64,000 bases of DNA from assembly GCA_017996395.1 (NCBI GenBank), contig JAGOHA010000003.1, positions 20,427 to 84,426 on the forward strand, given 5' to 3'. Of this stretch, positions 3,854-55,179 are shown one piece after another. How positions within the stretch are numbered: position 1 is the stretch's first letter; every line of letters starts with the position of its first letter. Under the pieces are notes generated by a model. It searched no databases and was not told where the DNA came from. It saw only the letters and a list, made by a program, of their open reading frames with translations. This DNA comes from Acidobacteriota bacterium. Lineage in GTDB: Bacteria; Acidobacteriota; JAAYUB01. Position numbers and translations under genes: made by a program.

Positions 3854-5590
3854 ATGCAATCCGTGGCAAACAGGGTCCGAATTTCCACTATACCAATCAG
3901 ATGGAGCATCACCCTGCCCCTGGCGGCGGGCATCCTGCTGATGGTGCCCCTCCTGCAGGGCATTCCGTTGTCCCATGATCTGCATATCCACCTGGCCATG
4001 GTGGATCAATTCCAGGAGAGTCTGGCCGAAGGTAATGTGTATCCTCGCTGGCTGGCCGATTTCAACGAGGGCTATGGCGCCCCCACCATGATTTTCTATC
4101 CCCCCGGTTTGTTCTACTGCGCCAGCTTTGCGGCGGGATTATGCGGTGGTAACATCTTGGTCGGCCTCTATCTGATCCTGACACTCCTGACAATCGTCGG
4201 ATTCGCCGGGGTGTACCGGCTGCTGTCGGAACCGGCCGGGCCGTGGGCGGCGGCCGGCGTCGCATTCGCCTTGGTGGCTCCATTCCGCGTATTTGAGCTT
4301 CATGCTGCCGGTTTGTTCCCCGCTTACGCGGCCGGCTGTATGTTTCCCTGGTCCCTGGATTCTCTTCGGCGCATTGCGGCTGAACCTACCGGCGGAGGCT
4401 GGCTGAGCCGGCCCGTTCAGGGTTGGGCGGTTTCCGTAGCAGTTATGCTGCTCCTGAACCTGCCGTTCACCGTGTTGGCGATGACGCTGGTGTCTGCTTG
4501 GCTCGTTTTCGAGACCGTGAGAAGCCGCCGGTTGGACACGCTGATCCGGGTGACCGCCGGAGCCGCGGTAGCCCTGGCAATCTCGGCCGTTTATCTGTTG
4601 CCCGCGCTGGCTGAACGGCACCTCGTGACGCTGCCACAGGCCGGGCAAAACGTCTATGCGGGCAATTTTCTCTTCATGCCACCCGGCACGTGGGCGGATC
4701 CCGCACTCCAGCACCTGTTCCAACGCATGGCGCTGTTTCCTCTGGCGTTGGCAGTCGTGGGATTGGTGGTGATACTGGCGATGAAACGGGGTTTCACCGA
4801 ATCGGTCCAATCGCCGTTCAGCGGCCTCCTCCAGCTCGCCTCGTTGATCGCCGTCGGGGCGGTTTTCCTGTCCTCGCCCGCATCCGGGTGGCTGTGGGCG
4901 GGGATTCCCGCCCTGGCAACCCTCCAGCTCCCGTGGCGGTTGCTGGACCATCTCGCCGCGCCCTGCAGCATCATCACCACTATGGCGATGGCTGCGGTGT
5001 GGCGGTCCAGGGTCCGTTACGGCTGGGTGCGGTATGCTTTTGCCGGCTTATGCCTGGTTCTGACCCTGCTGATGAGCATGCTCAGTTTGTCTTGCATCCG
5101 AATGAACGGGTTTGCGCCACCTCACGATATCCTCGAGCAAGTTGCCGCATTCCGGCGGCTGCCGGGCGATTATCCACCCCAAGGTTCCGAGCTCACACCG
5201 CAGCGCGCGGATGACGCCCTGGTGACCGTGGCTCGCGGGCTGATCAGCGGGAAAGTCATCGCATGGGAAGCCGAGCGCCGACGAATCGACATCCAGGCGG
5301 AGACACCCGGCGCCATCGCGTTGCGCACCTGGTACTATCCCGGCTGGTCCGCCCGCGACGAACGGAATGTGACGCTCCCGGTGACCGCGGAGCCGGGCAC
5401 GGGGAAACTCCTCATCGCCGTCCCCGCCGGACGTCATACTTTGGAGATCCGCTTCGGTTCCACACCACTGCGCCTTGCCGCGGTGTGGTTGAGTCTGTTC
5501 GCGGCCCTGGGGTTTGCTGCTGCCTGCATCTGTCCGCATATCTTTCGAAATCAGAAAAAATCCAACTCCGCCCCGCATCCCGGCATCTGA
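3854..5590 (+). CDS. Polytopic membrane protein; YfhO-like / GT-C-superfamily putative glycosyltransferase
   Basis: N-terminal loop motif HDLHIHLAMVDQFQESLAEGNVYPRWLADFNEGYGAPTMIFYPP resembles the YfhO/GT-C first-loop signature. More than 10 TM helices and a C-terminal soluble domain. The track ORF starts at 3809; a likely internal start is M at 3854. Confidence 0.4.
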   Translation: MQSVANRVRISTIPIRWSITLPLAAGILLMVPLLQGIPLSHDLHIHLAMVDQFQESLAEGNVYPRWLADFNEGYGAPTMIFYPPGLFYCASFAAGLCGGNILVGLYLILTLLTIVGFAGVYRLLSEPAGPWAAAGVAFALVAPFRVFELHAAGLFPAYAAGCMFPWSLDSLRRIAAEPTGGGWLSRPVQGWAVSVAVMLLLNLPFTVLAMTLVSAWLVFETVRSRRLDTLIRVTAGAAVALAISAVYLLPALAERHLVTLPQAGQNVYAGNFLFMPPGTWADPALQHLFQRMALFPLALAVVGLVVILAMKRGFTESVQSPFSGLLQLASLIAVGAVFLSSPASGWLWAGIPALATLQLPWRLLDHLAAPCSIITTMAMAAVWRSRVRYGWVRYAFAGLCLVLTLLMSMLSLSCIRMNGFAPPHDILEQVAAFRRLPGDYPPQGSELTPQRADDALVTVARGLISGKVIAWEAERRRIDIQAETPGAIALRTWYYPGWSARDERNVTLPVTAEPGTGKLLIAVPAGRHTLEIRFGSTPLRLAAVWLSLFAALGFAAACICPHIFRNQKKSNSAPHPGI

Positions 5591-5665
5591 TGAGCGGAGA
5601 GTCTGAGCTCACATCCACGGCATCCTAATGAGTGCCGGCTTAGAATGGAACCAGGTGTCGGTGTC

Positions 5666-6355
5666 ATGAAAGCGTGTATGCTGCTCCGAATCGTCGCCAT
5701 CATCTCGGCAGGTTGCCTGTCGATACCTTGGCTTCCAGCGGATCCGCCTGCCGAGGGCACGGCGCCATTGGCCGTGCGCCGGACCGGAGCCTCGGAGTTG
5801 CAGATCCAGCGTGCGGACGGCACCGCGTTCACGATCCGCTTCATGGAGACGGTGATGACCGTGGTCACCAATCCGATCTACCCGCTGGCGGCGGTGTTCA
5901 CGACCGATGAGCCGCCCGGCAGTCCGCTGGTGGTGCCGCCCCAGCCGGTGGCCACTTGTTCGGCATACATCCTGCACACAGTCACCGGTGAATTCGAGCG
6001 GATACCCACAGATGAGACCATGCTGGGCAGCTGGTTTTTCCAGGTGTGGTCACCCGACGGCCACTACGCGGTCATTCTGACCAGTCAATGGGGCGGTTTC
6101 AAGTTATTCCGCGCCGCCGACTGGATCAACAGCGGCGGGCACCTTTGGATCGACTGGCGGAAACCGTGGCGGAGCATGGGCGCCCGCGACACCCCGCCCC
6201 GCGCCGGTGACCCGGCCAAGATCCACCGGTTTATCTCCTGGGAAGGCCCGGCCACGTTTTCCTTCAGCGGATCCTGCTGCGGGACCGAGTTCAGGTACCG
6301 GTTCGATATCGAGCAGGACCGGTTGACGCGCACCGGCCAGCGCGAGCTGCCTTGA
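5666..6355 (+). CDS. Hypothetical lipoprotein
   Basis: MKACMLLRIVAIISAGC has a lipobox-like SAGC. No recognisable domain. Confidence 0.4.
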   Translation: MKACMLLRIVAIISAGCLSIPWLPADPPAEGTAPLAVRRTGASELQIQRADGTAFTIRFMETVMTVVTNPIYPLAAVFTTDEPPGSPLVVPPQPVATCSAYILHTVTGEFERIPTDETMLGSWFFQVWSPDGHYAVILTSQWGGFKLFRAADWINSGGHLWIDWRKPWRSMGARDTPPRAGDPAKIHRFISWEGPATFSFSGSCCGTEFRYRFDIEQDRLTRTGQRELP

Positions 6356-6436
6356 TTTGAGGCCGGGGTGCAGTATTTCGAACGGAAGGCGAGAAACAAA
6401 GCTCCATCCCGGGAAGTATAAAGATCGATAGTCGCT

Positions 6437-7249
6437 ATGAAACCGCGGAGCATCATCCAGATCATCAGCGTCATACTCCTGGCGACACCCGCGCTTCAGG
6501 GGAGCCGTCCGCCCAGCATGATGCTGCATCTGGATGTCGCCCGGATCGAATTGGAAGTCTTCCGGCTGGTGAATTGGGCCCGGGCGGAACGCGGCCTCGA
6601 CCCCTACCGCTACGACGACGGGCTGGCCGACCTGGCCCGGCGGCACTCCGGCAATATGCGGGACTTTCGGTTCTTTTCCCACACCGATCATGAGGCGCGC
6701 ACTCCGGACCAGCGACGCCTGAAGTATTATCCAGAACTCCTGGCCGTCCGCTTCGCTGAGAACATCGCCACCGGATTCGGCACCACCGAGTCCGAAATCG
6801 CGGCCAATCTCATGGAGTCCTGGATGAATTCACCCGGCCACCGGGCGAACATCCTCAGCTCCGACTTCACCCACATCGGCGTCGGGATCGTCCACGCCGC
6901 CGCCACCAAATATTTCGGCACGCAGAATTTCGCCTTCCCCCTCGGCAAACTCACGTCGCCTCTCAAGGCTGATATCCGCTACGGCCAGCGAGTGGAACTT
7001 GAATTTGAATCCATGGGCAATCTGCCCAAGGACAAACTCCGCGTGATCGTCCTGTACCCGGACGCGAACGTAAAAATCGTCCAGGGTGACGGGTCGTACT
7101 ACCTGGGCAAATCGTTCCTGCGCCCCAAGTGGCGGGACGATGTGTTCCGGGCGAGTATCCGCTGCGTGGGCGGCCGGGGCACGTACAAAATCGCCCTGGG
7201 GTCCGACGGAGAATACTACCCGATCTTTATCGAATTCCAGGTGTATTGA
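6437..7249 (+). CDS. Secreted CAP/SCP (PR-1-like) domain protein
   Basis: Signal peptide; motifs MESWMNSPGHRANIL and FTHIGVGIV are typical of the CAP superfamily. Confidence 0.65.
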   Translation: MKPRSIIQIISVILLATPALQGSRPPSMMLHLDVARIELEVFRLVNWARAERGLDPYRYDDGLADLARRHSGNMRDFRFFSHTDHEARTPDQRRLKYYPELLAVRFAENIATGFGTTESEIAANLMESWMNSPGHRANILSSDFTHIGVGIVHAAATKYFGTQNFAFPLGKLTSPLKADIRYGQRVELEFESMGNLPKDKLRVIVLYPDANVKIVQGDGSYYLGKSFLRPKWRDDVFRASIRCVGGRGTYKIALGSDGEYYPIFIEFQVY

Positions 7250-16120: not shown

Positions 16121-16929
16121 CCGTCGATGACCGTCATTATCATTATCAGTCTCTGGTCTCCGAGGGAGACCGACGCAAATTCCTCATCTCCTCCATTGTG
16201 TCGCATTTTTTGCTGGTCACGGTCATTCTGGTCTGGCAATTTGCCGCGCCCAGGGGCCCCACGCTGACTTTAGGCGGAGGCGGCGGAGGCGGCAATCGCG
16301 CGATCGGCGTCGGCCTGGTCGAAGGGCTGCCGGCGGGTCAGGAGTATTTCAAACCACCCGTCACGCTTCCGGAACCCGTCGCCGCGCCGGCGGCAAAGCC
16401 CGCAGATTCGATCGTAGAGACTGATCGCCCGGATGACTTCCTGAAAACCACCCAGCCGGACCGGAAGTCCGCCACCGAAAAGCCCACTCCTCCTGCGCCA
16501 GCCGCAACGCCCGCCCCACCGGGCCCGGTCAGCACCGGGGAACACTCGCCGGGGGTTCGCGGCGGCACCGGCGCCGGCGGGCAGGGCGAGGGCTCCGGTC
16601 ACGGTGTTTCCATCGGCGGCGCGGGCGAAGGCTTCTACGACTCCTGGTACGCCCGCCAGGTGGAACAGCGGGTGGGCAGCAACTGGCTGGAGTCCCGCAT
16701 GGGCATCCAGTTCTCGGGAAAGCACCGGACTCTTATCCAATTTACCGTGAGTCCCGAGGGGCGGATTGAGGACATCCAGATCGTTGAATCCACGGGCCCG
16801 GAAGCCTTTGAACGTTCCGCGCTGCGGGCGGTTCGGGCATCGGACCCCTTGCCTCCCCTGCCCGTTCAATATAGAATGCAGAGGAATCGCGTTCGGTTCG
16901 TGGCCATATTCGAACATCCGACACCTTGA
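16117..16929 (+). CDS. tolA: TolA/TonB-family energy transducer (short form)
   Basis: N-terminal TM helix, Pro/Ala-rich linker, C-terminal TonB_C-like domain. ATGA overlap with tolR. Confidence 0.6.
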   Translation: MTVDDRHYHYQSLVSEGDRRKFLISSIVSHFLLVTVILVWQFAAPRGPTLTLGGGGGGGNRAIGVGLVEGLPAGQEYFKPPVTLPEPVAAPAAKPADSIVETDRPDDFLKTTQPDRKSATEKPTPPAPAATPAPPGPVSTGEHSPGVRGGTGAGGQGEGSGHGVSIGGAGEGFYDSWYARQVEQRVGSNWLESRMGIQFSGKHRTLIQFTVSPEGRIEDIQIVESTGPEAFERSALRAVRASDPLPPLPVQYRMQRNRVRFVAIFEHPTP

Positions 16930-16943
16930 TTTGAGGAGTGTGA

Positions 16944-18277
16944 TGAAGCGCTTCCGTCTACTCCCGCTGTTGGCGCTGGGCTGCATGATCTTTTCCCAAG
17001 CGCAGTCCGACGACGCATCTATCGTGATCAAGCCGCGTCCGGCCAAGACGACCGTGCTGGCGCTCCCCGAGTTCCAGCCCAAGAGCGGCAACCTGGATCC
17101 CGCCGTCGACGAGTATTTGAAAATCGTCAACGAAACGCTCTGGAACGATCTGGAATACTCGGCCTTCTTCAAGCTGCTCTCGCGCTCGTTCTACCCGGCG
17201 CAGCGGATCGACGAACCCGAAGATCTGGTATTCAAGGACTGGCAGGATCAGAACATCGGCGTGGATTTCATCGTCATCGGCAACGCCCGGATCGAGAGCA
17301 ACTACCTGGTGGTCCAGTGCCGGGTTTTCGACCTCAAGACGCAGGAACAGGTGCTGGGCAAGCAATTCCGGACCATTCCCCGCTACACCCGGGCCATCGC
17401 CCACCGGATCGCCGACCATATCGTGAGCCTGCTGTCCGCCAACGCCTCCCAGGGCATCGCGTCCACGCAGATCGTATTCGAGCGCAAGACCCGTACCGGC
17501 AAGGAGATCTATCTGGCGGATTACGACGGCGCCAACCTGCAGCCCATCACGTCGAACGGATCCATCAACGTCACTCCGGCCTGGAATCCATCGAACGAGT
17601 GGATCGCGTTCACTTCTTACTACGAAAGCACGCCGCGGCTCTATCTGGTCTCGCTTTCCAGCGGCCAGCTCCAGGCGTTTCCTCCGAGCGGCGGCCTGCT
17701 CACCACGCCGGCCTTTTCGCCCGACGGCAAGCAACTGGCCTTCTCCGCCCGGCTCAACGACGCGTCGGACACGGATATCTACATCGCCGATATAGACGGC
17801 GGCAACCTGCGCAATATCACCCAGCATCCCGGCATCGACATCAGCCCCTGCTGGAACCCCACGGGCCGGCAACTGGCTTTTGTTTCCAGCCGTGGCGGGG
17901 TGCCGCAGATCCACATCTGCGACACATTCGGCGCCGATCTGACCTGCATCACTCTGGAAAGCGGATACGCCTCGTCACCGGACTGGTCGCCGGACGGCCG
18001 TTACATCGTCTTTTCCTGGAAGCCTTCCCGCATGGCGCATTTCGACCTCTTCATCGCCGAGGTGGCGACCAAACGGATACTTCAGCTCACCCAGGGCCAA
18101 GGCGATAACGAGAACCCGTCATGGGCGCCCGACGGCCGCCATATCGTTTTCCAATCCAACCGTTCGGGTTCGTCGGAGATTTACACGGTATTCGCCGACG
18201 GCAGCGAGCTGCGACAAATCACTAATTTGCAAGGGTGTTCCAATCCGGACTGGTCGTCGTACGCACAGAAAAACTGA
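16944..18277 (+). CDS. tolB: Tol-Pal system beta-propeller protein TolB
   Basis: Signal peptide MKRFRLLPLLALGCMIFS, TolB N-domain, repeated beta-propeller blades (SPDG/APDG). The track ORF begins at 16766, but an RBS plus ATG at 16944 fit better. Confidence 0.85.
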
Positions 18278-18335
18278 ATTTTTTTCGGACACTTCACGAC
18301 TGGATCGTTTATATGAATGAGGATTGGAGGGAGCA

Positions 18336-19103
18336 ATGAAATTGAACAACCGGCTTCTTGTCATCGGCGCGGCCGCGATCCTGCTGTTTCTCGGCGGGGG
18401 TTGTAAAAAGCGTACGCCCGTGGCGGCGCCGCCGTCCACCCAGCCACAGCTGGTGGCGCCGACCATCACGTTGACCGCTCAGCCGTCGATAATCGCCGAG
18501 GGGGCATCCACCACTCTGAACTGGACGACGACCAACGCCACGGGGGTGACGATCGAAACCGTGGGCCAGTTCCCGCCCCAGGGTTCGACGGTGGTTTCAC
18601 CCAGAGCCTCGACGACCTACGTGGCGGTGGCAACGGGCACCGGCGGCACCGTGAGCACCCAGGCGCGCGTAACGGTCACGCCTGCCCCGGTCAGCACCAC
18701 CACCACTGAAACCCCGCAGGTAGATGAGACCGACCAGGGGCTCAACGTCGAGCAGATTTTTAAAAACGAGATCCAGGATATCTTCTTTGATTTCGATCGC
18801 GCCGAAGTCACCGCCGAGTACCGGGATATCCTGCGCCAGAACGCGGAAGTGCTCCTCCGCCGGCTGCCCCGGGTCAGCATGATGATCGAAGGGCACTGCG
18901 ACGAGCGCGGCACCGAGGAGTACAACATCGGGCTCGGCGACAAGCGCGCGAACGCGGCTCGCGATTACCTCGTGTCGCTCGGGGTGAGCGCCACCCGGAT
19001 CAAGACGATCTCTTATGGCGAGGAACGTCCATTCGATCCCGCGCACAATGAGGAAGCCTGGGCCAAGAACCGCCGGGCGCACTTCGTTCTGATCAAACCT
19101 TGA
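18336..19103 (+). CDS. pal: Peptidoglycan-associated lipoprotein Pal (OmpA-like C-domain) with an extra Thr-rich N-terminal beta domain
   Basis: Lipobox LFLGGGC. C-terminal OmpA-like domain FDFDRAEVTAEYRDIL...GHCDERGTEEYNIGLGDKRANAARDYL. GGAGGGAGCA RBS before the ATG at 18336. Confidence 0.85.
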   Translation: MKLNNRLLVIGAAAILLFLGGGCKKRTPVAAPPSTQPQLVAPTITLTAQPSIIAEGASTTLNWTTTNATGVTIETVGQFPPQGSTVVSPRASTTYVAVATGTGGTVSTQARVTVTPAPVSTTTTETPQVDETDQGLNVEQIFKNEIQDIFFDFDRAEVTAEYRDILRQNAEVLLRRLPRVSMMIEGHCDERGTEEYNIGLGDKRANAARDYLVSLGVSATRIKTISYGEERPFDPAHNEEAWAKNRRAHFVLIKP

Positions 19104-19113
19104 GGAGGCCCAA

Positions 19114-19953
19114 ATGAAGCGATGCCTGTCGGTGGGAGTGCTGCTGTTCCTGACGGCCGGCCTGGCCGCGGCCGGAGCGAAGGAGGAGTACATCCGACTG
19201 CAAAACGACATCATGACCGTCCAGAATCAGATTCGCATGCTTCAAAAAAGCGTGGACGAGAGCGGCGCCGTATCCAAAACCCTGATGGAGCAGCTCATCA
19301 ACCAGATGAGTGCGATCACCCGCATCGTCGATCAGCTCAACAGCCGTCAGGAAGAACAGTCCCGCGCCGGCGACGAGAACATCGAGGACCTGATCAATTC
19401 CATCCGGGCACTTGCCTCGAAGATAGACGACCAGAGCGTCAAGATCGCCAACCTGACCCGCAGCCTGGAGGCAACCCAGACATCGCTCGAGGAGATGAAA
19501 TCCCGCCGACCCAAGGCGGAAACCACCCCCGACGGCAAGCCGCTCCCGCTGCCGGCCGACCAGCTGTATTCACTGGCGTACAACGACTACATCCAGGGCA
19601 ATTTCGAACTGGCCGTTCAAGGATTTTTGGATTTTCTTGCGAATTACAAGGAGTCCGAACTCGCCGACAACGCCCAGTATTACATCGGCGACTGTTATTT
19701 CAACCAGGGACGCCACACGGACGCGGTGGAGGCGTTCAATCAGGTGATCAGCCTGTTTCCCAAGGGGGACAAGGCCCCCGCCGCCGTGTTGAAAAGCGGG
19801 CTGGCCCACCTGTCCTTGAACAACAATCCGGCCGCTGTGGATGCTTTTAAAAACGTGATCCTGAAATACCCCGATTCCCCGGAGGCCAACATCGCGATTC
19901 AGCAACTGCAGATTCTCGGCGTGGACCCTCCTGCCCGACCGAAAAAACGCTGA
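19114..19953 (+). CDS. cpoB: Tol-Pal-associated cell-division coordinator CpoB/YbgF (coiled coil + TPR)
   Basis: Signal peptide, coiled coil, C-terminal TPR-like [16 protein letters not shown]...[11 protein letters not shown]. Confidence 0.75.
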
Positions 19954-19967
19954 CAGGAGGCATCGTC

Positions 19968-20408
19968 ATGAAAGGACTGAACAAAGTCATGTTGATCGGC
20001 CGCTTGGGACGTGATCCCGAGTTGCGTTACACCCAGAACGGGCAGACTGTCGCCAAGTTTTCTGTCGCCACCGACGAGGTCTGGGTGGATAAGAGCGGAA
20101 CCAAACAGACCCGGGTCGAGTGGCATAACATCGTCGTCTGGGGCAAGCTGGCGGAAATCTGCAACCAGTATCTCAAGAAGGGCCGCCTGGTTTATGTCGA
20201 GGGCCGCATTCAGACCCGTCAGTGGGAGGACCAGAGCGGCGGCAAGCGGTCCACTACGGAGATTGTCATCTCCGACATGAACATCTTGGAGAGCCGCACC
20301 GCTGCCGCAGCCGAACCGGCGGCGGCCGAATACGGCGATTCCACCGTCTCCCGTGATGAGCCGCCGGTCGTGGACGAGCCCATCACCGATGACGACGTTC
20401 CGTTTTAA
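19968..20408 (+). CDS. ssb: Single-stranded DNA-binding protein SSB
   Basis: OB-fold N-terminus [22 protein letters not shown] and acidic tail ending DDDVPF. Confidence 0.9.
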
Positions 20409-22343: not shown

Positions 22344-23465
22344 CTAGATGCCGAATGTGTCGGCCATCTCGGTGAAGTAATTGTCGGTGAAACCGGCGAT
22401 GTAGTACACGATCACGCGATGCATCGGCATCCGTCCGTCGCGGATCATCTCCCGGTAGCGGCTGGGAAGCCGCTCGGGTTGCGCGGCATAAAATTCAAAC
22501 AAACGCCGAATTTTTTCCGTCTCGACCTGCCGACGATCCTGGATCTCCGGGTGCTGGTAGTAATGGACGCGTAGAAACTGCTTCAGTCGGAGCACCCAGC
22601 CGCCCATGTCCGGAGAGTAGCCCACCAGCCGGCGGTCGCACCGGCGAACGTCCGCGACGGTCACTACTCCCGCTTCCGCCAGTTCCCGCTCGATCGTTGC
22701 CGTCATGTCGCGCACCGTCAGGTTCATCATGCGGCGCAGCGTCTCGTTGAAAATCAGGCGGGCATCGGTTCCGGGGTAGCGTTGGTTCAGCTGGGTGTAC
22801 AACTCACGGAAATCGTCCAGTTCCCGCAGGATGACATCCAGGACGACGAATCCCGCTTCCAGCGCGTCATCCAGGTCCGAATAGGAGTAGCAGATCTCGT
22901 CGCAGAAATCCACGATCTGGGACTCGAGCGGCGGCTGACAGGCGAAATCGAACTCAGCCAGGGTGGGATCGTTGCGGTAATGGTCGTTCGTGGAATGCTT
23001 GATGATGCCTTCCCGAACCTCGTAGCTCAAGTTCAAGCCCGGACAGAACGCATATTTCTGTTCGAATTCGTCCACGATGGTGAGCGTGTGCCGGTTATGC
23101 TCGAATGAATCGCTGAAGTGCTGGCAGATCTCGTTCAGGATCTCCTCACCGCAGTGCCCCAGCGGCGGGTGTCCCAGATCGTGGCAGAATCCCAGGCAGG
23201 CGGCCAGATGCGTGTTCAATCCCAGTTTGTCCGCGACGGATCGGCAGAGGGTCGCCACCTCGATGCTGTGGGTCAGACGGGTTCGGTGATGATCGGACCG
23301 CCGGCCCGTGATCACCTGTGTTTTTCCGGCCAACCGCTTGAACGCCCGGGAATGAATGATCCGGTCGGTGTCACGCTCGAAGATCCCGCGGACCTGGTCC
23401 GCGAGTTCTTCTGGAAACCGGCGCCCCCGGGAATCGCATTCGCGCATGGCGTAACTTGACATCAT
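22344..23465 (-). CDS. dgt: dGTPase-like HD-domain triphosphohydrolase
   Basis: HSRAFKRLAGKTQV...RTRLTHSIEVA...HDLGHPPLGH is the HD-domain dGTP triphosphohydrolase signature. Confidence 0.75.
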   Translation of the reverse strand: MMSSYAMRECDSRGRRFPEELADQVRGIFERDTDRIIHSRAFKRLAGKTQVITGRRSDHHRTRLTHSIEVATLCRSVADKLGLNTHLAACLGFCHDLGHPPLGHCGEEILNEICQHFSDSFEHNRHTLTIVDEFEQKYAFCPGLNLSYEVREGIIKHSTNDHYRNDPTLAEFDFACQPPLESQIVDFCDEICYSYSDLDDALEAGFVVLDVILRELDDFRELYTQLNQRYPGTDARLIFNETLRRMMNLTVRDMTATIERELAEAGVVTVADVRRCDRRLVGYSPDMGGWVLRLKQFLRVHYYQHPEIQDRRQVETEKIRRLFEFYAAQPERLPSRYREMIRDGRMPMHRVIVYYIAGFTDNYFTEMADTFGI

Positions 23466-23581
23466 GCCGCTGGTTCTCCCTGCAGACCGCCTGGGTCAGG
23501 GGGCATTGTAGGCCCATCGGGTGCCGTTGGCAAGCCGCTGCACGCTTGATTTTGGATCGGCAAAAAGGTACAATCCGCTCA

Positions 23582-23908
23582 ATGCGAAAACTGATCAGGC
23601 CCACCCGCGAAGAACTCGACCGGCTGAAGAAGCTGTCCAGCCACTCGTCGGTCGTCACCCGCCGCCGTTCGCCGTCGGAGGATACGGGCAGCGAAACACA
23701 CTATCTGCAGCAGCACAGCCAGCATCAGACGCCCATGATCGTCCGGCTGACCTCCGGAGAGGAGATCCGTGGCTGGATCGAGTACTATGATCTGCACTTC
23801 ATCCGGATCACGGTGGAACGGGGACCCAACCGGTTCGTCTTCAAGCGGGACATCCTGTTCATGCACGAGGATCTGGCGGCTCTCAAGCGCCGCCGGCTCA
23901 CCCGTTGA
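23582..23908 (+). CDS. Hfq-like Sm-fold RNA-binding protein with a basic N-terminal extension
   Basis: TPMIVRLTSGEEIRGWIEYYDLHFIRIT...NRFVFKRDILFM aligns by eye to Hfq Sm1/Sm2 ([28 protein letters not shown]...QMVYKHAIST). The track ORF begins at 23456; start chosen at MRKLIRP. Confidence 0.45.
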   Translation: MRKLIRPTREELDRLKKLSSHSSVVTRRRSPSEDTGSETHYLQQHSQHQTPMIVRLTSGEEIRGWIEYYDLHFIRITVERGPNRFVFKRDILFMHEDLAALKRRRLTR

Positions 23909-23923
23909 CCCCCCGCATCGCCA

Positions 23924-24346
23924 TCACCACCAGTGGAAGACGTCGTATCCGAGTTTGAACACCCAGTTCAGCGTCATGGCGGCGATCAGCACGATGCCCC
24001 CGACGATCCGCTCGGTGCGGCTCATTTCCAGCCGGAAGCCCGGCCAGCGCAGCAGCCACTGCCCCGCCACCTGAGTGATCAGGCCGACCAGCACCGCGAA
24101 AACCACCACGCCCAGGGGCGACATGACGACCGCCTCGCTCCACCGACCGTGGGTGAGCAGAACGAACGCGGTGGTCATCCCGCACGTCGGGCACGGCAGG
24201 CCGGTGAATGCGCGGAAGCTGCATAACGGCACCGGGATTCGATCGAACGGGAAGAAGCGGGCGATCAGCAGCGCAATGACGCCGAGAATGCTGATCGCCC
24301 GCGTGTAGTACGAAATCGGGCGGGAGGGGAGAACGATCCACTGCAT
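23924..24346 (-). CDS. DUF2752-family membrane protein
   Basis: CPTCGMTTAF motif and 4-TM profile typical of DUF2752. Confidence 0.5.
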   Translation of the reverse strand: MQWIVLPSRPISYYTRAISILGVIALLIARFFPFDRIPVPLCSFRAFTGLPCPTCGMTTAFVLLTHGRWSEAVVMSPLGVVVFAVLVGLITQVAGQWLLRWPGFRLEMSRTERIVGGIVLIAAMTLNWVFKLGYDVFHWW

Positions 24347-25701
24347 CAGAAAACCTTGAACTGGATCCGCAGGTAGTCCTTTGGATTCTGCCGGACGTCG
24401 TAGATCAGTTTGGCCAGTTCGGCCAGTGCCTGGTTCAGGTTTTCATACAGCTGCCTGTCTTTGAGCAGCTGGCCCATGGTGCCTTCACCCCGGTCGATCT
24501 GTTCCAGAATCTGGCGAATTTTACGAAGCGAATCCCGCGCCTCCTCGAACAGCGTCGGGTCGGTGGACATCCGGCCCAGCGTGCCTTCCCCCTGCTCGAT
24601 CCGCAGGAGCAGGCGATCCACCTTGGCCGACACTTCCCGCAGGTTGTTGTACAGCGCAGGATCATCGACCAGCTTGTTGAGCGTTCCTTGTGACGTGTTG
24701 AGCCGGTTGATGAACTGGTTGAGCTCTTTGGCGGTGGCGGTCAGCTCGTCGTACAGGGCACGGTTATGAACCAGCTGGCCGAAGGTACCCTCGCTGCTGC
24801 GCAGGTCGTCCATGAGCCCGCCCGCCCGCTGAACGGTCACATCCAGGTTCTGGATTGTGGATACCAGCGACCGGTGAAGACTGGTTTCGTTGATGAGCTG
24901 GCCGATGGTGCCTTCGCCGGCGTCCAGCTTGGCCACGATGTTCTTCACGCGGTCCGAGATGTCGCCGAAGTTGGCCATCAGGTCGTTGGCGTTGACCATC
25001 AGCTGCCGGATGGTGGCCTCGTTGACCGCTTCGATGAAGATGTGTCCCTCGGCGGTCCGGCGCGGCTCCTCCGGCAGCCTTCCGATGCTGATATCCACAT
25101 ACTTGTCGCCCAGCAGGCCGATGGAACCGATGCTCACCTCCGAATCGCGCTTGATCCAACCGACGAATTCGTCCTCGATCTGCAGGACCAGTCGGATGCT
25201 CTGGAGATTGCTCCGGGTGGTTTTGAGGTCCTGCCGCGCCGCCGCCTGGTTCTTGCGGAGTCTGGCAAGCCGCTCTTCCTGGAGCAGGATCCCCTCCCGG
25301 ACCTTGTCGGCGTCCGCAGCCTTGGCGGCGGCAAGCGACGCCCGTTCGCGCTCCACCGCCCCTTCCACGTCCCGGACCAGACCGTCGTATCGCTGGACGT
25401 CGGCGATGAGCTGTTGGATCTTTTCGTTCGTGTCCCGGTTGGCTTGCGTGTCCGGCGGGGTCTTCTCCAGTTTAATGTCGTCCACATTGCCGATCTCGAT
25501 GCCGTTGAGCCACACCGGCGCGCCGGCCTTCAAACCGGAGATCTCCGGCAGATAGGTGACCGCATACGATTTGGGGGTGAAGAATCCACGTCCCCCGCTG
25601 ACCCGGACGATCATGAAAATCAGGATGGCGAAGCTGCCGATGACGAAAATGCCGACGCGAAACTCGTGCCAGTTGAATCTCTTCTTGCGCCTTTCCATCA
25701 C
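24346..25701 (-). CDS. mlaD: MCE/MlaD-family protein with five C-terminal helical repeats of about 33 aa
   Basis: N-terminal TM plus MCE domain. Repeating units GEGTIGQL / SEGTFGQL / SQGTLNKL / GEGTLGRM / GEGTMGQL, each followed by xxxLYxxL. Confidence 0.7.
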   Translation of the reverse strand: MMERRKKRFNWHEFRVGIFVIGSFAILIFMIVRVSGGRGFFTPKSYAVTYLPEISGLKAGAPVWLNGIEIGNVDDIKLEKTPPDTQANRDTNEKIQQLIADVQRYDGLVRDVEGAVERERASLAAAKAADADKVREGILLQEERLARLRKNQAAARQDLKTTRSNLQSIRLVLQIEDEFVGWIKRDSEVSIGSIGLLGDKYVDISIGRLPEEPRRTAEGHIFIEAVNEATIRQLMVNANDLMANFGDISDRVKNIVAKLDAGEGTIGQLINETSLHRSLVSTIQNLDVTVQRAGGLMDDLRSSEGTFGQLVHNRALYDELTATAKELNQFINRLNTSQGTLNKLVDDPALYNNLREVSAKVDRLLLRIEQGEGTLGRMSTDPTLFEEARDSLRKIRQILEQIDRGEGTMGQLLKDRQLYENLNQALAELAKLIYDVRQNPKDYLRIQFKVF

Positions 25702-25725: not shown

Positions 25726-26517
25726 TTAGGAAATGAACTCCTGGATGTACGAATCGCCGCTGCTGACCAGCTCGTCCATGTTGCCTGAAAACACGATCCG
25801 CCCGTCCCGCAGCACGCTGAACGAGGTGTGGATGAAACACTGGTCGGCAGGCTCCCGCTCCACCCGGATGTCGCCGGGCGACACGACCCGAGCCGTATGT
25901 TCCGCCAGGAAGTACGCGGCATTCAGATCGTGCGTCACCACGACCGAGGACATCCCCTCCATGTCGCGAAGTTTGACCAGCAGGTCGCAGATCGACCGCG
26001 ACGTCACGGGATCGAGCCCCGCGGTCGGCTCGTCGTACAGCATGTACCGTGGCTGTCCCGCCAGAGCACGGGCGATGGCGACCCGGCGGCGCATGCCCCC
26101 CGACAGCTCGGCCGGTTTCATGTCGATGGTGTGGGCCAATTCGACGAAACCGAGCAGCCGGGTCACAATCTCGTCGATCTCGTGCTCTTCCCAGCCGCCT
26201 TCGTCGTAGAGGCGATAACCCACATTCTGACGGATGGTCAGCGAGTCGAACAATGCGCCCTCCTGAAAGACGATCCCCATCTGGTCGCGGATCGCGATCA
26301 GCTCATCCTCTTTCAACCGGGAGATATCCACGTCGCTGATCATCACCTGCCCCGCATCGCATCGCTCGAGGCCGATGAAGAGCCGCAGCAGGGTTGATTT
26401 GCCGGATCCGCTACCCCCCAGAACGATCAGACTTTCCGCCGGCCCCACCCTCAGGCTGATATCCTGCAGCACCGGGGTGCCGGCGTAGGATTTGTCGACG
26501 TGCAGCATCTCCAACAT
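25726..26517 (-). CDS. mlaF: ABC transporter ATP-binding protein MlaF
   Basis: Walker A GGSGSGKST, signature LSGGMRRRVAIARAL, Walker B MLYDEPTAGLD. Confidence 0.85.
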   Translation of the reverse strand: MLEMLHVDKSYAGTPVLQDISLRVGPAESLIVLGGSGSGKSTLLRLFIGLERCDAGQVMISDVDISRLKEDELIAIRDQMGIVFQEGALFDSLTIRQNVGYRLYDEGGWEEHEIDEIVTRLLGFVELAHTIDMKPAELSGGMRRRVAIARALAGQPRYMLYDEPTAGLDPVTSRSICDLLVKLRDMEGMSSVVVTHDLNAAYFLAEHTARVVSPGDIRVEREPADQCFIHTSFSVLRDGRIVFSGNMDELVSSGDSYIQEFIS

Positions 26518-26524
26518 GGCGCGC

Positions 26525-27289
26525 TCAGTGAAAAAATTCGATGATGAGTTTGTTCAGGATGAAATCCGAGATGATCACCAGAATGGATGCGGCGACCACC
26601 GACTTCGTGGTGGCCCGGCCCACCCCCTGGGTGCCGCCCCAGGTCCGCAGTCCGTGATGGCAGCCGATCATCGCCACGATGAAACCGAACACGAGCGGCT
26701 TGCCCAGCCCGCCGATCAGGTCTTCATAGGTCAGCGAGTCGAACGCCACCGACCAGAACAGCGACGTCCGGAGCTTCAGTTCATACAGCGAAACCAGCCA
26801 GCCGCCGATCAAACCGAAAAAGTCACAAACGGCCGTCAACAGCGGCAGCATGGAGACCGTGGCCATCATCCGGGGGGTCACCAGCTTCTTGATAGGATCG
26901 GTGCCTAAAGCCCGCATGGCGTTGATCTGGTCGGTGACAACCATCGAACCTAATTCGGAGGCGATCCCCGATCCGATGCGTCCGGCGATCATGAGCGCCG
27001 ACAAAACCGGCCCCAACTCGCGCACCAGGCTCATCGAAACCAGCTGACCGGTCAGGCCCACGGCTCCGAACGAGCGAAGGGTGCTGGCGGTCTGGAGCGC
27101 TAGAACGCCACCCGTGAAAAATCCGGTCAGGATGATGATGGTCAGCGAGCCGACGCCGATCAGGTCCATCTGCTCGAAGGTTTCGCGGATGTAGCGCGGC
27201 CGGCGGAACAGGTTCAGGATCGCCTTGAACGCCAACAGGCTGAAATCCTGGATTTCCACCAAAGCGCTGATGATCAGGTTCAACAACAT
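26525..27289 (-). CDS. mlaE: ABC transporter permease MlaE
   Basis: MlaE-type permease profile (TDQINAMRALGTDPIKKLV). Confidence 0.8.
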   Translation of the reverse strand: MLLNLIISALVEIQDFSLLAFKAILNLFRRPRYIRETFEQMDLIGVGSLTIIILTGFFTGGVLALQTASTLRSFGAVGLTGQLVSMSLVRELGPVLSALMIAGRIGSGIASELGSMVVTDQINAMRALGTDPIKKLVTPRMMATVSMLPLLTAVCDFFGLIGGWLVSLYELKLRTSLFWSVAFDSLTYEDLIGGLGKPLVFGFIVAMIGCHHGLRTWGGTQGVGRATTKSVVAASILVIISDFILNKLIIEFFH

Positions 27290-28253: not shown

Positions 28254-28889
28254 TCAGAGCACAATGTAGGGATTGAAGTGAATTTCGTCTTCCACGGTGC
28301 TTTCCGGACCGTGCCCCGGCAGCAGTCGCGTGGCCGGCGGAAGCGGGAGGATCCGGTCCCGGATGGAACGGAGCAACGCGGCCTCGTCGCCGCCCGGCAG
28401 GTCGGTCCGGCCGATGCCGCCGGCGAACAGCGTGTCACCCGTGAAGCAGGTCGTGTCCAGCAGCAGGCAGCACCCGCCCGGCGTGTGTCCCGGAGTGTGC
28501 AGCACTCGAAAGACCATGCAACCCACCGCCAGGTGCTGGCCGTCCTCCAGCCACGCGCGTGGTTCCGGGCACGGGCGCGCCTGCAGCAGGGGGACCAGAC
28601 CGAAGATGTCCGGCGCGGTGAGGAGATACTCGTCATGGCGATGCAGATGCCCGACCGAGGGAAAGGCGTCCGCCACATCGGCCGCCGCGGCCCAGTGGTC
28701 CAGATGGCCATGCGTGTGGATCATCATGACCGGGCGCCATCCCAGCGCCCGCAGACGGTCCACGATGCGGCCGCCGTCCGCCCCCGGATCGATCACCGCG
28801 GCTTGCCGGGTCTCCATGCAACCGACGAGATAACAGTTCACCTCGAGCGGGCCCACGACGACGGTTTCGATCTGGAAGCGGGCCATCAT
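28254..28889 (-). CDS. MBL-fold metallo-hydrolase (glyoxalase II-like)
   Basis: HTHGHLDH zinc motif; HTPGHTPG. Confidence 0.75.
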   Translation of the reverse strand: MMARFQIETVVVGPLEVNCYLVGCMETRQAAVIDPGADGGRIVDRLRALGWRPVMMIHTHGHLDHWAAAADVADAFPSVGHLHRHDEYLLTAPDIFGLVPLLQARPCPEPRAWLEDGQHLAVGCMVFRVLHTPGHTPGGCCLLLDTTCFTGDTLFAGGIGRTDLPGGDEAALLRSIRDRILPLPPATRLLPGHGPESTVEDEIHFNPYIVL

Positions 28890-30796
28890 TTGTCCTTTGC
28901 CGATGATAGGCCCTCGGGAAAGACGATGCGCAGCAGAAATCCGCCTGCATCCGTCAGTTCGAAATCCAACTGGCCACGCTGCCGGGCGATCAACCGGTTC
29001 AGCAGGACAAAATGGAAATCCCGAGCCACGTCGAAGGCGACGAGTTTGTCCTTGTTGCCCCGGGCGCCCGTCGGAGGATTGAAGCGAATCATGAGTTCCG
29101 GTGCCGCGTTTTCGCGGACGAGGCAGACCGCCTGCAGCTTGCCGCCGGAGACAAAATCCAGCAACCGATCGAGGAACAGTCGAAGTCCCAGCAATGTGAG
29201 TTCCTCATCGAGCATCACCTGCCCCAACCGGGCGTCGAACCGGGCGTCGATCTCGACACTCTTGGCCACGGTTTTAGAACGGATCGCGACGAATACGCTG
29301 TCCAAGGCAGGCATCAAGGCCATCGGCTGGATCTTGAGGGGATAATCCCGATCGGTGATCACCCGGGTGAGTTCCAGTTTCTGCAGGCTGCGTTCGACCT
29401 TTTCGATTTCGACGACGCAGTTGCGGAACAGGAGCGGATCATAGGCGTCGCGTAGGCTCCGCTTCACCCCGTCCTCGAGCATCTGGACAAAACCGCGCAG
29501 GCTGGCCAGGTGCACGCGGATGGACTGTCCCACCGCGTACACCGTGTTGAATTCCGTGGCTTCGCGCAGCGCCATCTCCAGCTCGGACACCTGGATCGCC
29601 TGCCGGCTGCCGGCCTGGTTCAAGCGGTTGATCTCCGCGGTCAGTTTGTCCAACTCACCCTGGTAATACAGGGTTTTCCTCAGCACGAACGATCCCATCT
29701 CCACCAGGCGCAAGAGCGTGCTCAGCGAAGCGGCGTGAAATAACTGCGGTTGGGTGGATTCCAGCACCACATACCCGTAGATATGCTTGAACGTCACCAG
29801 CGGAATCACCAGCACGGACTGCAATTTCTTCGGTGGCGACGGCAGTGGATACTTCTTCATGAGGGCGAAGGCGTCGGGGGCGTACAGCAGCTGCTTGCCT
29901 TTCTCGAGCTCCTGCCGGGCGCTGGGCAGCAATGAGAGAATGAGGGGTTGCTCCAACATGTCACCGTGGCGGACCTCGATTCCACCATCGGGTGTTTCCA
30001 GAAGCAGGGTGACATCAGCGCCTGGGTAGGTCTCCTGAAGATAGCGGTGGAATGCCTCCATCACCTTGTCCAGTGCGGCGAACACTGCAATCTCACTGAG
30101 GAAGGCCGAGACCGTATCGGCTTCTTCCGACCGCCGGGCCAGTTCGTTCTGCAGGGCGCGGTAGGTGAAGAGCGCTTCAACGATTTTCCCGATTCGGGCC
30201 AGGTCCTTCTCCCGGCGATCGGTGTCTTCCGATGGAATAGCCAGCAACACCCCGCCGACCGTCTCGCCGGCATGGACGATGGGACAGAGTGTCACGGACT
30301 GAAGCACGTCTTTCCCCTCTTCGACCGTCATGCCGTTTTCCCAACCGGCTGGCAAGCGCACAGGTTCCGGGGCGGCCTCCGGCGCCGGTCCCGCCTGGCT
30401 CAGGATACGCTCCGCCAGCCGGTCGGGATCCAACCGGGTCGACGGATACTGATGGTTCAGTACCTGTCCGGTCGCCGAATCCCTCAATACGAATGCGGCA
30501 TATGGCAGTCTGAGGATCCGGCCCATCTCATCGAACGCTTCCGGCAGCCGCCGGGAAGCCCGGTCCACGTCGCTGATGATGGCACAGGCCTGATCATAAA
30601 GAGCTTCTCGAAAGCTCAACTCCACCGTCAACTCACTGATCTGCTTTTCCGCCGCCAGTTGCCGCCGTTCGGTTTCGCGACGCTTCCGCTCGAGCCAGCC
30701 GGCGAGGATGGCCAGCGCCACGACGAAGAAAGCGAGGATCCACGGGATCATCCCGGACATGGCCAATATCACCGGGACATTGTGCAGTTCAAGCAT
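28886..30796 (-). CDS. Membrane-anchored GAF-domain sensor with a degenerate histidine-kinase-like C-terminus
   Basis: One N-terminal TM, two GAF-like regions, a DHp-like segment SIRVHLASLRGFVQML. The C-terminal region lacks clear N/G1/G2 ATP-lid boxes. ATGA overlap with the downstream MBL hydrolase gene. Start chosen at MLELHN (30796) rather than the track start at 31090. Confidence 0.5.
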   Translation of the reverse strand: MLELHNVPVILAMSGMIPWILAFFVVALAILAGWLERKRRETERRQLAAEKQISELTVELSFREALYDQACAIISDVDRASRRLPEAFDEMGRILRLPYAAFVLRDSATGQVLNHQYPSTRLDPDRLAERILSQAGPAPEAAPEPVRLPAGWENGMTVEEGKDVLQSVTLCPIVHAGETVGGVLLAIPSEDTDRREKDLARIGKIVEALFTYRALQNELARRSEEADTVSAFLSEIAVFAALDKVMEAFHRYLQETYPGADVTLLLETPDGGIEVRHGDMLEQPLILSLLPSARQELEKGKQLLYAPDAFALMKKYPLPSPPKKLQSVLVIPLVTFKHIYGYVVLESTQPQLFHAASLSTLLRLVEMGSFVLRKTLYYQGELDKLTAEINRLNQAGSRQAIQVSELEMALREATEFNTVYAVGQSIRVHLASLRGFVQMLEDGVKRSLRDAYDPLLFRNCVVEIEKVERSLQKLELTRVITDRDYPLKIQPMALMPALDSVFVAIRSKTVAKSVEIDARFDARLGQVMLDEELTLLGLRLFLDRLLDFVSGGKLQAVCLVRENAAPELMIRFNPPTGARGNKDKLVAFDVARDFHFVLLNRLIARQRGQLDFELTDAGGFLLRIVFPEGLSSAKDK

Positions 30797-30968
30797 GCCG
30801 ACTCCGCATGTTAGCATGTTGATATTCAATAGTTTCTGCATTATCCCATTGTCTGGTGGACCTGTCAAACCCAAAAGACCCTTTATAGACCTGCCCCACC
30901 CGGTCGGCGAACTTTCATGTTGCAATCCATCTGTAATTCCAGTATGTTGGCCACTTGTCGAGGACATC

Positions 30969-31628
30969 ATGCTTTCATTCACGCGAACCATCGGCGCCGG
31001 CGGGCAATTCCTGCTGACCAAACTGACATCCGCTCTCGGGCGAATCAAGGTCAATCCCAACCTGATCACTTTGTTGGGTTTTGTCATCAATATCGTAGCC
31101 GCTTTTTACCTTTCCAAGGGCCAATTCGGCATCGCCGGCACCATCATCTTCATCGCCGGCGCCATGGACATGCTGGACGGCGCGGTGGCCCGTTTGACGG
31201 GGACGGCAACGAAATTCGGCGCATTCTTTGACAGCGTCATCGACCGTTACTCCGATATCGTGCTCTACCTGGGCCTGATCATTTACTTCGGCAAGATGCC
31301 GCGAATGACCTACGTGGTTCTGGTGGGGATCTGCATCATGGGCTCCATGATGACCAGCTACACCCGAGCCCGCGCCGAAAGCCTGATCGATAAGTGCAAG
31401 GTGGGATTTCTGGAACGCCCGGAGCGCGTGGTGCTACTGATCCTGGGCACCTGGTTCTACCGCGTGGAACACGTGCTGTGGGTGATTGCCGTTCTGTCCA
31501 ACTGGACAGTCATCAGTCGCATCATCTTCACCTGGATGGAGCTGTCCAAGGTGAACATCCTGATGCCCATCACTCCGTCATTCCAAACCGAGAACCCCGT
31601 CGAGCAGAAGCATCCCATCGAGTGCTGA
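30969..31628 (+). CDS. CDP-alcohol phosphatidyltransferase family protein
   Basis: DMLDGAVARLTGTATKFGAFFDSVIDRYSD matches D-G-x2-A-R-x8-G-x3-D-x3-D. Confidence 0.7.
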   Translation: MLSFTRTIGAGGQFLLTKLTSALGRIKVNPNLITLLGFVINIVAAFYLSKGQFGIAGTIIFIAGAMDMLDGAVARLTGTATKFGAFFDSVIDRYSDIVLYLGLIIYFGKMPRMTYVVLVGICIMGSMMTSYTRARAESLIDKCKVGFLERPERVVLLILGTWFYRVEHVLWVIAVLSNWTVISRIIFTWMELSKVNILMPITPSFQTENPVEQKHPIEC

Positions 31629-55103: not shown

Positions 55104-55179
55104 TGGTGCCGAGGGACGGAATTGAACCGCCGACACAGGGATTTTCAGTCCCCTGCTCTACCGGCTGAGCTACCTCGGC
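55104..55179 (-). tRNA. tRNA-Phe (anticodon GAA), CCA encoded
   Basis: Reverse complement GCCGAGGTAGCTCAGCCGGTAGAGCAGGGGACTGAAAATCCCTGTGTCGGCGGTTCAATTCCGTCCCTCGGCACCA: 7-bp acceptor stem, anticodon loop CTGAAAA, T-loop GGTTCAATTCC. Confidence 0.9.

Follow-up and report, generated by a model that had tools for sequence, protein, structure and literature searches.

Features of the hfq-like gene

The DNA analyzed here (the window) is a 64,000-nt stretch from an Acidobacteriota bacterium (GenBank assembly GCA_017996395.1, contig JAGOHA010000003.1, positions 20,427 to 84,426 of the forward strand). On its plus strand, at 23582-23908, it carries a gene for a small protein that resembles Hfq, and this hfq-like gene and its product are the subject of the present analysis. 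Hfq is the central hub of small RNA (sRNA) regulation in Proteobacteria and its role elsewhere is disputed; Acidobacteriota are among the most abundant soil phyla. In the first-pass annotation of this DNA the gene was given the span 23466-23908. The open reading frame (ORF) is present there, but positions 23466-23581 are intergenic (23466 is the first base past a dGTPase gene), and the mechanical ORF list runs the frame even further upstream, to a TTG at 23456. A search among 5.8 billion proteins found 13 close homologues at 52-95% identity, with lengths of 103-120 residues, and the ATG at 23582 is taken as the true start because all 13 begin with MRKLIRP. The gene is real and conserved. Its coding sequence and the elements of its product are listed below; the domain assignments come from profile hidden Markov models (HMMs), AlphaFold2 models, Foldseek and column statistics.

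23582-23908, plus strand: hfq-like coding sequence, 108 codons and a TGA stop (23906-23908), ATG start at 23582
23585-23602, plus strand: RKLIRP peptide, codons 2-7; R2, L4, R6 and P7 invariant in 15 relatives
23606-23638, plus strand: predicted amphipathic helix REELDRLKKLS, codons 9-19, in both AlphaFold2 models; E10 and E11 invariant in the clade
23660-23674, plus strand: basic segment RRRSP before the Sm helix, codons 27-31 (column statistics)
23687-23869, plus strand: predicted Hfq-type Sm domain, codons 36-96 (HMMs, AlphaFold2, Foldseek)
23870-23905, plus strand: basic C-terminal tail DLAALKRRRLTR, codons 97-108, helical by prediction at 98-107, with five K+R and one D+E

Homology to Hfq and the predicted Sm fold

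The window protein scores 23.6 bits with the Pfam model Hfq (PF17209; E=3.9e-5, query residues 40-91 aligned to model positions 4-54), 20.5 bits with Hfq_1 (PF21979; E=5.2e-4), 22.1 bits with TIGR02383 (E=1e-4) and 11.7 bits with NF001602. The cut-offs are 27 bits for both Pfam models, 61.7 bits for TIGR02383 and 95 bits for NF001602; the E-values for PF17209 and TIGR02383 are still significant for homology despite the sub-cut-off bit scores. These matches are Hfq-specific: the query gives no match to the LSM domain PF01423 at E up to 10, and 6 out of 72 sampled relatives match PF01423 weakly (best E 0.0049). Pairwise similarity is not significant even when the search space is the window alone, with a phmmer E of 0.39 against E. 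coli Hfq and a range of 0.03-0.39 against the Hfq proteins of E. coli, S. aureus, and B. subtilis. The Sm1/Sm2 alignment to Hfq drawn in the first-pass annotation is thus no evidence by itself, but its register is right and is reproduced by the profile HMMs (query 40-91, Pfam Hfq 4-54).

A profile of the 14 closest sequences, searched against 1.84 billion cluster representatives (50% clustering), detected 707 relatives with E-values of 1e-3 or lower, 230 of them at 1e-10 or lower. All of the 72 relatives sampled match Hfq_1 and 70 of them match Hfq. When a profile of these 72 sequences was compared with the PDB, 37 distinct Hfq sequences were matched at E-values from 1.3e-9 to 7.5e-3 (Caulobacter 1.3e-9, S. 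aureus 8e-8, Anabaena 1.7e-6, and E. coli about 1e-5), while LSm proteins were reached only at E 0.05 or worse.

Two AlphaFold2 models of the single chain have the Sm topology of an alpha-helix followed by five strands. Their mean predicted local distance difference test (pLDDT) scores are 79 and 85, with a core above 90; over residues 41-100 the score is at least 90 in the first model and at least 95 in the second. The predicted elements are alpha1 at 36-47 and strands at 51-56, 61-69, 73-77, 84-87, and 91-96. In a Foldseek search of the PDB the top 50 structures are all Hfq, with a root-mean-square deviation of about 1 Å over 57-66 residues, and Hfq structures score clearly above LSm structures; the model also matches the cyanobacterial Hfq type represented by 3hfo and 3hfn. 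Residues 36-96 of the window protein, modeled as a monomer, are therefore predicted to adopt an Hfq-type Sm fold. The first-pass description of a divergent Hfq-like Sm protein holds, on the strength of the Hfq-specific HMM matches (below cut-off) and of this predicted fold. The "atypical Hfq" of Borrelia, which has since been reclassified as a flagellar protein, FlgV (bioRxiv 10.1101/2024.01.09.574855), was considered as a cautionary analogue and dropped, since the Sm fold here is confidently predicted as Hfq-type.

A third branch of Hfq-type proteins

As judged from the family search, the hfq-like protein is not an orphan: the branch to which it belongs is large and counts at least 707 cluster representatives. 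On PF17209 the canonical Hfq proteins reach 90-103 bits, and on PF21979 Synechocystis Ssr3341 reaches 87.3 bits. Members of the branch score only 17-40 bits on PF17209 or PF21979, and relatives pass the Hfq_1 cut-off at 29.6-39.8 bits. Since they are weak on both models, the branch members form a third Hfq lineage without a dedicated Pfam or NCBIfam model, lying between canonical and cyanobacterial Hfq. A neighbor-joining tree of the core has the branch monophyletic with respect to four canonical Hfqs, at the low resolution of a short alignment. A separate observation concerns Pfam DUF1581 (PF07619), which is matched weakly in 18 out of 72 family members, at window residues 49-70 (best E=1.2e-4); this suggests that DUF1581 may itself be Sm-like.

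One genome per species was scanned, which gave 14 loci, all of them in metagenome-assembled genomes (MAGs) of Acidobacteriota. The "deep-branching lineage" proposed in the first-pass annotation does not apply, as the host belongs to the Acidobacteriota, which are not especially deep-branching. The identification of an Hfq homologue is not new in itself: automatic pipelines already make it for relatives, some of which are named "host factor-I protein" or "sRNA-binding regulator protein Hfq" in IMG, and an "Acidobacteria" group is shown in the EggNOG COG1923 tree (PMC7074383, Fig. 3). This tree group is the sole mention found; no paper on the Hfq of Acidobacteria or Planctomycetes was found in the searchable literature, nor was experimental work on the branch or a dedicated curated model. 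What appears undescribed in that literature is a separate branch without the defining RNA-contact residues, with an inverted charge layout and with an invariant N-terminal peptide.

RNA-contact residues and charge layout

Column statistics were obtained from 162 sequences aligned to E. coli Hfq numbering. The positions of interest are given below with the E. coli residue, the residue in the window protein and the state of the column in the branch.

G34, G64: kept, 100% conserved
D40, D70: kept, 100% conserved
K56, K88: kept, 100% conserved
E37, E67: kept, 98% conserved
Q8, E38: replaced, Glu in 98% of the branch
F42, H72: replaced, variable in the branch (N/D/S/R/H)
Y25, R55: replaced, K/R in 76% of the branch
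I30, E60: replaced, E in 77% of the branch
Rim R16, R17, R19 and S46, Q47, Q49: replaced, S/G, E/D/Q and Q/K/R in the branch
K47, T77: replaced, T in 86% of the branch
H57, R89: replaced, His in 48% of the branch

Of the proximal uridine pocket (Q8, F/Y42, K56, H57) the window protein keeps the lysine alone. The basic rim patch R16/R17/R19, together with K47, is not kept, and neither are residues Y25 and I30 of the distal A-R-N site. The position of the Sm2 motif [YF]-K-H-A-[IV] is occupied here by F87-K88-R89-D90-I91, the Ala being replaced by D/Q/E across the branch. With most RNA-contact residues replaced, the protein may have little RNA chaperone activity or none. Weak or absent activity of this kind has reportedly been suggested already for cyanobacterial Hfq.

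The branch has conserved residues of its own. T35, E38, W65, Y68, R75, T77, P82, N83, and E96 are near-invariant and branch-specific, and the signature T35-x-x-E38, G-W-I-E-Y-Y-D (64-70), R75-x-T77, P82-N83-x-F85, and K88, whose columns are 83-100% conserved, is present in full in the window protein, to which the family HMM gives 116 bits.

The calculated charges of the three parts of the protein compare with E. coli Hfq as follows.

N-terminal arm, residues 1-35: pI 11.3, net +5; E. coli Hfq has no arm of comparable length
Sm core, residues 36-96: pI 6.6, net -1; E. coli Hfq core pI 9.4
C-terminal region, residues 97-108: pI 12.0, net +4; E. coli Hfq pI 5.7

By these values the charge layout appears inverted relative to E. 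coli Hfq, with a near-neutral core between basic N- and C-terminal arms. Annealing is reported to require the rim arginines of Hfq (PMC3753642), and acidic C-terminal domains are reported to autoregulate the Hfq proteins of E. coli and Caulobacter (PMC5606850, PMC6561178).

Compared with canonical Hfq (PF17209/TIGR02383; structures from E. coli, S. aureus, Caulobacter, and Listeria), the window protein shares the G34, E37, D40, and K56 positions, the Sm2-like F-K-[HR]-x-I and the fold of an alpha-helix and five strands, and homology at the profile level is significant (1.3e-9 to Caulobacter Hfq). It differs in its sub-cut-off scores (23.6 vs. 27 and 22.1 vs. 61.7 bits), in the replacement of Q8, F42, Y25, I30, and the rim arginines, in a core that is near-neutral and not basic with tails that are basic and not acidic, in a conserved N-terminal arm of 35 residues and in having no miaA or hflX neighbor. 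The cyanobacterial Hfq proteins (PF21979; Synechocystis Ssr3341, 3hfo, and Anabaena Asl2047, 3hfn) have likewise lost the canonical RNA-contact residues, and relatives of the window protein pass the Hfq_1 model at 29.6-39.8 bits. The window protein itself, however, scores 20.5 bits on that model, compared with 87 for Ssr3341, at an identity of only 17-18%, and unlike the cyanobacterial proteins it has a long N-terminal arm and the RKLIRP motif. In Synechocystis, Hfq binds the pilus ATPase PilB1 at the pilus base and its mislocalization abolishes function; PilB1 carries a C-terminal domain specific to cyanobacteria (PMC4390875). The archaeal and eukaryotic Sm/LSm proteins (PF01423) are more distant, with LSm structures scoring below Hfq, a family-profile E of at least 0.05 and no match to the query.

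The N-terminal arm and the RKLIRP peptide

The motif-bearing peptide of the hfq-like protein is MRKLIRPTREELDRLKK. R2, L4, R6, and P7 are unchanged in 15 sequences that are only 28-59% identical to the query, and conservation of the N-terminal RKL[IV]RP peptide is stricter than that of most of the Sm core. Within the close clade the invariant residues of the arm are I5, R6, P7, E10, E11, R29, and P31. The broader pattern [RK][RK][LIVM][IVL]R[PAT] occurs in 33 out of 162 sequences, spread over at least 2-3 separate clades of the tree. In 735 kb of DNA the pattern [RK]KL[IV]RP was encountered 77 times, each time (77/77) at the N-terminus of an Hfq-like ORF. The string RKLIRP did not occur in the literature searched. 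Residues 1-20, which include the peptide and the predicted amphipathic helix, have a pLDDT of 64-66 in the first AlphaFold2 model and 75 in the second. Further along the arm, K/R is most frequent in the four columns 20-23, ahead of the Lys/Arg-rich position of the family (R28), and a basic-then-proline segment (K/R ... PP) is common to the whole branch, with 72% Pro each at P31 and the next column.

The extension was described in the first-pass annotation as N-terminal and Arg/Ser-rich, and as standing in place of a C-terminal tail. Its N-terminal position and its basic character are borne out; it is not merely Arg/Ser-rich, since it begins with the invariant RKLIRP and continues into a predicted helix, and a short basic C-terminal helix (98-107) is predicted as well. 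The carriers of the motif also differ within the core, with Q/H at position 45 (otherwise Leu in 89%) and Met instead of Val at 52; the window protein has Q43, H45, and M52. These motif-linked differences at positions 43 and 45 of alpha1 and 52 of beta1 may reflect co-variation with the N-terminal peptide; they come from 2-3 independent clades only, are confounded by phylogeny and are not relied on here.

Predicted promoters and probable start of the hfq-like mRNA

The spacer in front of the hfq-like gene contains two sigma-70-like sites by promoter scan, compared with 0.1 expected from shuffles. The features of the spacer are as follows.

23466-23581, no strand: intergenic spacer of 116 bp between the dGTPase and hfq-like genes, with both promoters inside (ORF map and sequence)
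23546-23551, plus strand: -35-like box TTGATT of the hfq-like promoter, identical in the window and in the related loci L001 and L002, partly kept in L017
23569-23574, plus strand: -10-like box TACAAT of the hfq-like promoter, 17 nt after the -35-like box and ending 7 nt before the ATG
23505-23533, minus strand: promoter-like site of the dGTPase gene, TTGCCA, 17 nt, TACAAT, with 10/12 consensus matches

In the window, L001, L002, L015, and L017, TA[CG]AAT precedes the ATG by 6-9 nt. A similar layout shows in 15 family representatives whose ORFs were called too far upstream: where the true start probably lies they read Y-N-x-x-M, which corresponds to TAYAAY, 6 nt, and ATG. With only 7 nt between the -10 box and the ATG, there is no room for a Shine-Dalgarno sequence, and the hfq-like mRNA is probably leaderless or near-leaderless in the window clade and in some others; this layout was not seen in clade b, a sister clade described below, or in the Bryobacterales loci. 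Downstream of the gene, no intrinsic terminator was detected. From its arrangement the hfq-like gene appears monocistronic, with its own sigma-70-type promoter.

Proposed function and alternative explanations

We consider it fairly probable (about 0.65) that the window encodes an Acidobacteriota Hfq-type Sm protein of a third, large Hfq branch, which would act as a putative RNA-binding ring. The protein would assemble into a Sm ring, probably a hexamer, and RNA would be bound around the pore through the retained Sm2 lysine K88 together with R89. The basic N- and C-terminal arms may supply the RNA contacts and the annealing that the rim arginines provide in E. coli. RKLIRP and the helix behind it could serve as a short docking element with two possible uses: it may fold back onto the acidic or neutral surface of the ring as an intramolecular regulator, a charge-reversed analogue of the autoregulatory acidic C-terminal tip of E. 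coli and Caulobacter Hfq, or it may recruit a partner protein. Several observations weigh against this reading. Every curated cut-off is missed by the single-sequence scores of the window protein, and, by alignment, most of the residues behind the three surfaces with which E. coli Hfq binds RNA are replaced, on each of the three. The N-terminal arm is modeled with moderate confidence only (pLDDT 57-75). The leaderless mRNA is deduced from consensus matches, and L019 has a GAGGA Shine-Dalgarno sequence instead. A further-reaching version, tentative and somewhat doubtful in our view, would make the acidobacterial branch a mechanistically distinct Hfq class, in which the annealing patch has moved from the rim to the flexible arms and RKL[IV]RP has a new regulatory role: it would either inhibit the protein itself, plugging the ring in competition with RNA as a charge-reversed counterpart of the acidic C-terminal tip of proteobacterial Hfq, or serve as a motif for docking to, for example, a ribonuclease or the ribosome.

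The same features could belong to a protein-docking Sm ring, in which a partner is recruited by the conserved terminal peptide and RNA binding is weak or secondary. We hold this for unlikely, although it has a precedent in the cyanobacterial Hfq that functions via PilB1 (PMC4390875). In its favor, the six residues of the peptide do not change where identity in the core is down to about 30%, as is typical of motifs that bind a partner, the residues by which canonical Hfq contacts RNA (Q8, F42, Y25, and R16/R17/R19) are replaced, and PF21979 gives the branch scores equal to or higher than those of PF17209; yet the sequence identity to 3hfo is only 17-18%, both arms are strongly basic (pI 11.3 and 12.0) and, with the invariant Sm2 lysine, fit nucleic-acid binding, and no candidate partner gene is kept alongside across three lineages.

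That the protein is an ordinary Hfq orthologue, divergent in looks only and working by the E. coli mechanism (proximal U, distal A-R-N, and annealing by rim arginines), is quite improbable. Its fold superimposes on Hfq at about 1 Å, relatives carry names of the K03666/COG1923 type in IMG, and the tree in PMC7074383 already has an Acidobacteria group within EggNOG COG1923. Nevertheless, Q8 is replaced by E in 98% of the family and F42 by variable polar residues, Y25 has become K/R and I30 E, and R16/R17/R19 have become S/G, E/D/Q, and Q/K/R; the TIGR02383 score is 22 bits against a cut-off of 61.7 bits, the acidic C-terminal domain is missing and no miaA or hflX neighbor was found in any clade examined. 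A chance ORF or a pseudogene without a product, for which only the sub-threshold HMM scores of the single sequence speak, has practically no probability left and is already refuted by conservation: start and length are shared by the 13 homologues (52-95% identity), the family has 707 representatives, the fold prediction is confident, the promoter is conserved and the ORFs on the opposite strand here are shadows of the hfq-like ORF.

The branch is very large, and its members abound in soil and peat: there are at least 707 cluster representatives in all, and at least 571 metagenome loci in the sister clade b. If its members are true RNA chaperones, they would represent a second way to build one on a Sm ring, with basic arms in place of a basic rim; if they are not, the "Hfq" labels in Acidobacteriota genomes imply no Hfq-dependent sRNA regulation. 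A mechanistically distinct class would open up post-transcriptional regulation in Acidobacteriota. The invariance of RKLIRP provides a concrete, testable handle.

Genomic context in the branch

The genes adjoining the hfq-like gene in the window are listed below; the domains were assigned by Pfam.

22344-23465, minus strand: HD-domain dGTPase-like triphosphohydrolase (HD and HD_assoc), also in L001, L002, and L017/L018
23924-24346, minus strand: DUF2752 protein, convergent, lying 15 bp past the hfq-like stop
24346-25701, minus strand: MlaD-like protein
25726-26517, minus strand: ABC ATPase (MlaF-type)
26525-27289, minus strand: MlaE permease

The hfq-like gene stands alone and is divergent from the dGTPase gene, as was noted in the first pass, and it is convergent with the DUF2752-MlaD-MlaF-MlaE operon. 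That operon adjoins the hfq-like gene also in L001, L002, L017/L018, and L019. L001 (AnMBR.bin219), with a protein 93% identical, is collinear over the whole 12 kb, and its neighbors are 81-97% identical. The layout of dGTPase, hfq-like gene and DUF2752-Mla is kept at 70% and 59% identity (L002, L017/L018) and its DUF2752-MlaD half at 52% identity (L019); L015 lacks it. Given the convergent orientation of the Mla operon and the divergent one of the dGTPase gene, we interpret the layout as lineage synteny and not as a functional operon.

Other lineages have other neighbors. In Bryobacterales, 11 loci have MoaD/MoaE, a VWA protein, the hfq-like gene and inositol monophosphatase on one strand; in the Bryobacterales/Solibacteraceae MAGs (L004-L014) the cluster lies at about 4300-7100, MoaD/MoaE is fused and the phosphatase is SuhB-like. 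A gene of about 310 codons upstream in Bryobacterales was considered as miaA and ruled out, as it codes for the VWA-domain protein. Clade b has the consensus NRKLIRPSL...PPDQTNAE.FYY.KQ...GWIEWYD and abounds in metagenomes of soil and peat (at least 571 confirmed loci); its hfq-like gene usually lies downstream of a DNA polymerase III delta-prime-like gene (holB) and ahead of a convergent 4HBT thioesterase (L020-L099). The neighbors thus differ in the three lineages examined and none is common to all three, so the context points to no functional partner. The miaA-hfq-hflX neighborhood is typical of Proteobacteria and not strictly defining. Neither miaA nor hflX was found beside the hfq-like gene in any lineage examined, and the first-pass remark that the gene lies outside the usual miaA-hfq context applies here and in every one of them. 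A canonical hfq was also looked for in the six-frame translation of the window, with three canonical Hfq queries and the family HMM, and no second hfq was found there.

Other features of the window

At 451 aa the MlaD-like protein is long, and its homologues are annotated "Helical_needle" (PF28544). DUF2752 is a membrane protein at the end of the Mla operon, and the DUF2752-MlaD pair is kept in L017, L018, and L019. A Tol-Pal-like cluster at 16766-20408 on the plus strand contains PD40/TolB-like, OmpA/Pal-like, and TPR_6/CpoB-like genes, followed by an SSB gene. The wider surroundings, which also hold a sodium:solute symporter and a XerC/D-type recombinase, are ordinary chromosomal core. The one RNA gene detected in the window is a tRNA-Phe (GAA) at 55104-55179 on the minus strand; Rfam at gathering thresholds gave nothing else there. 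An ORF of 734 aa at 28886-31090 on the minus strand has no Pfam match at E up to 1e-5 and is conserved, with 86% identity in L001 (partial sequence compared) and 41% in L002.

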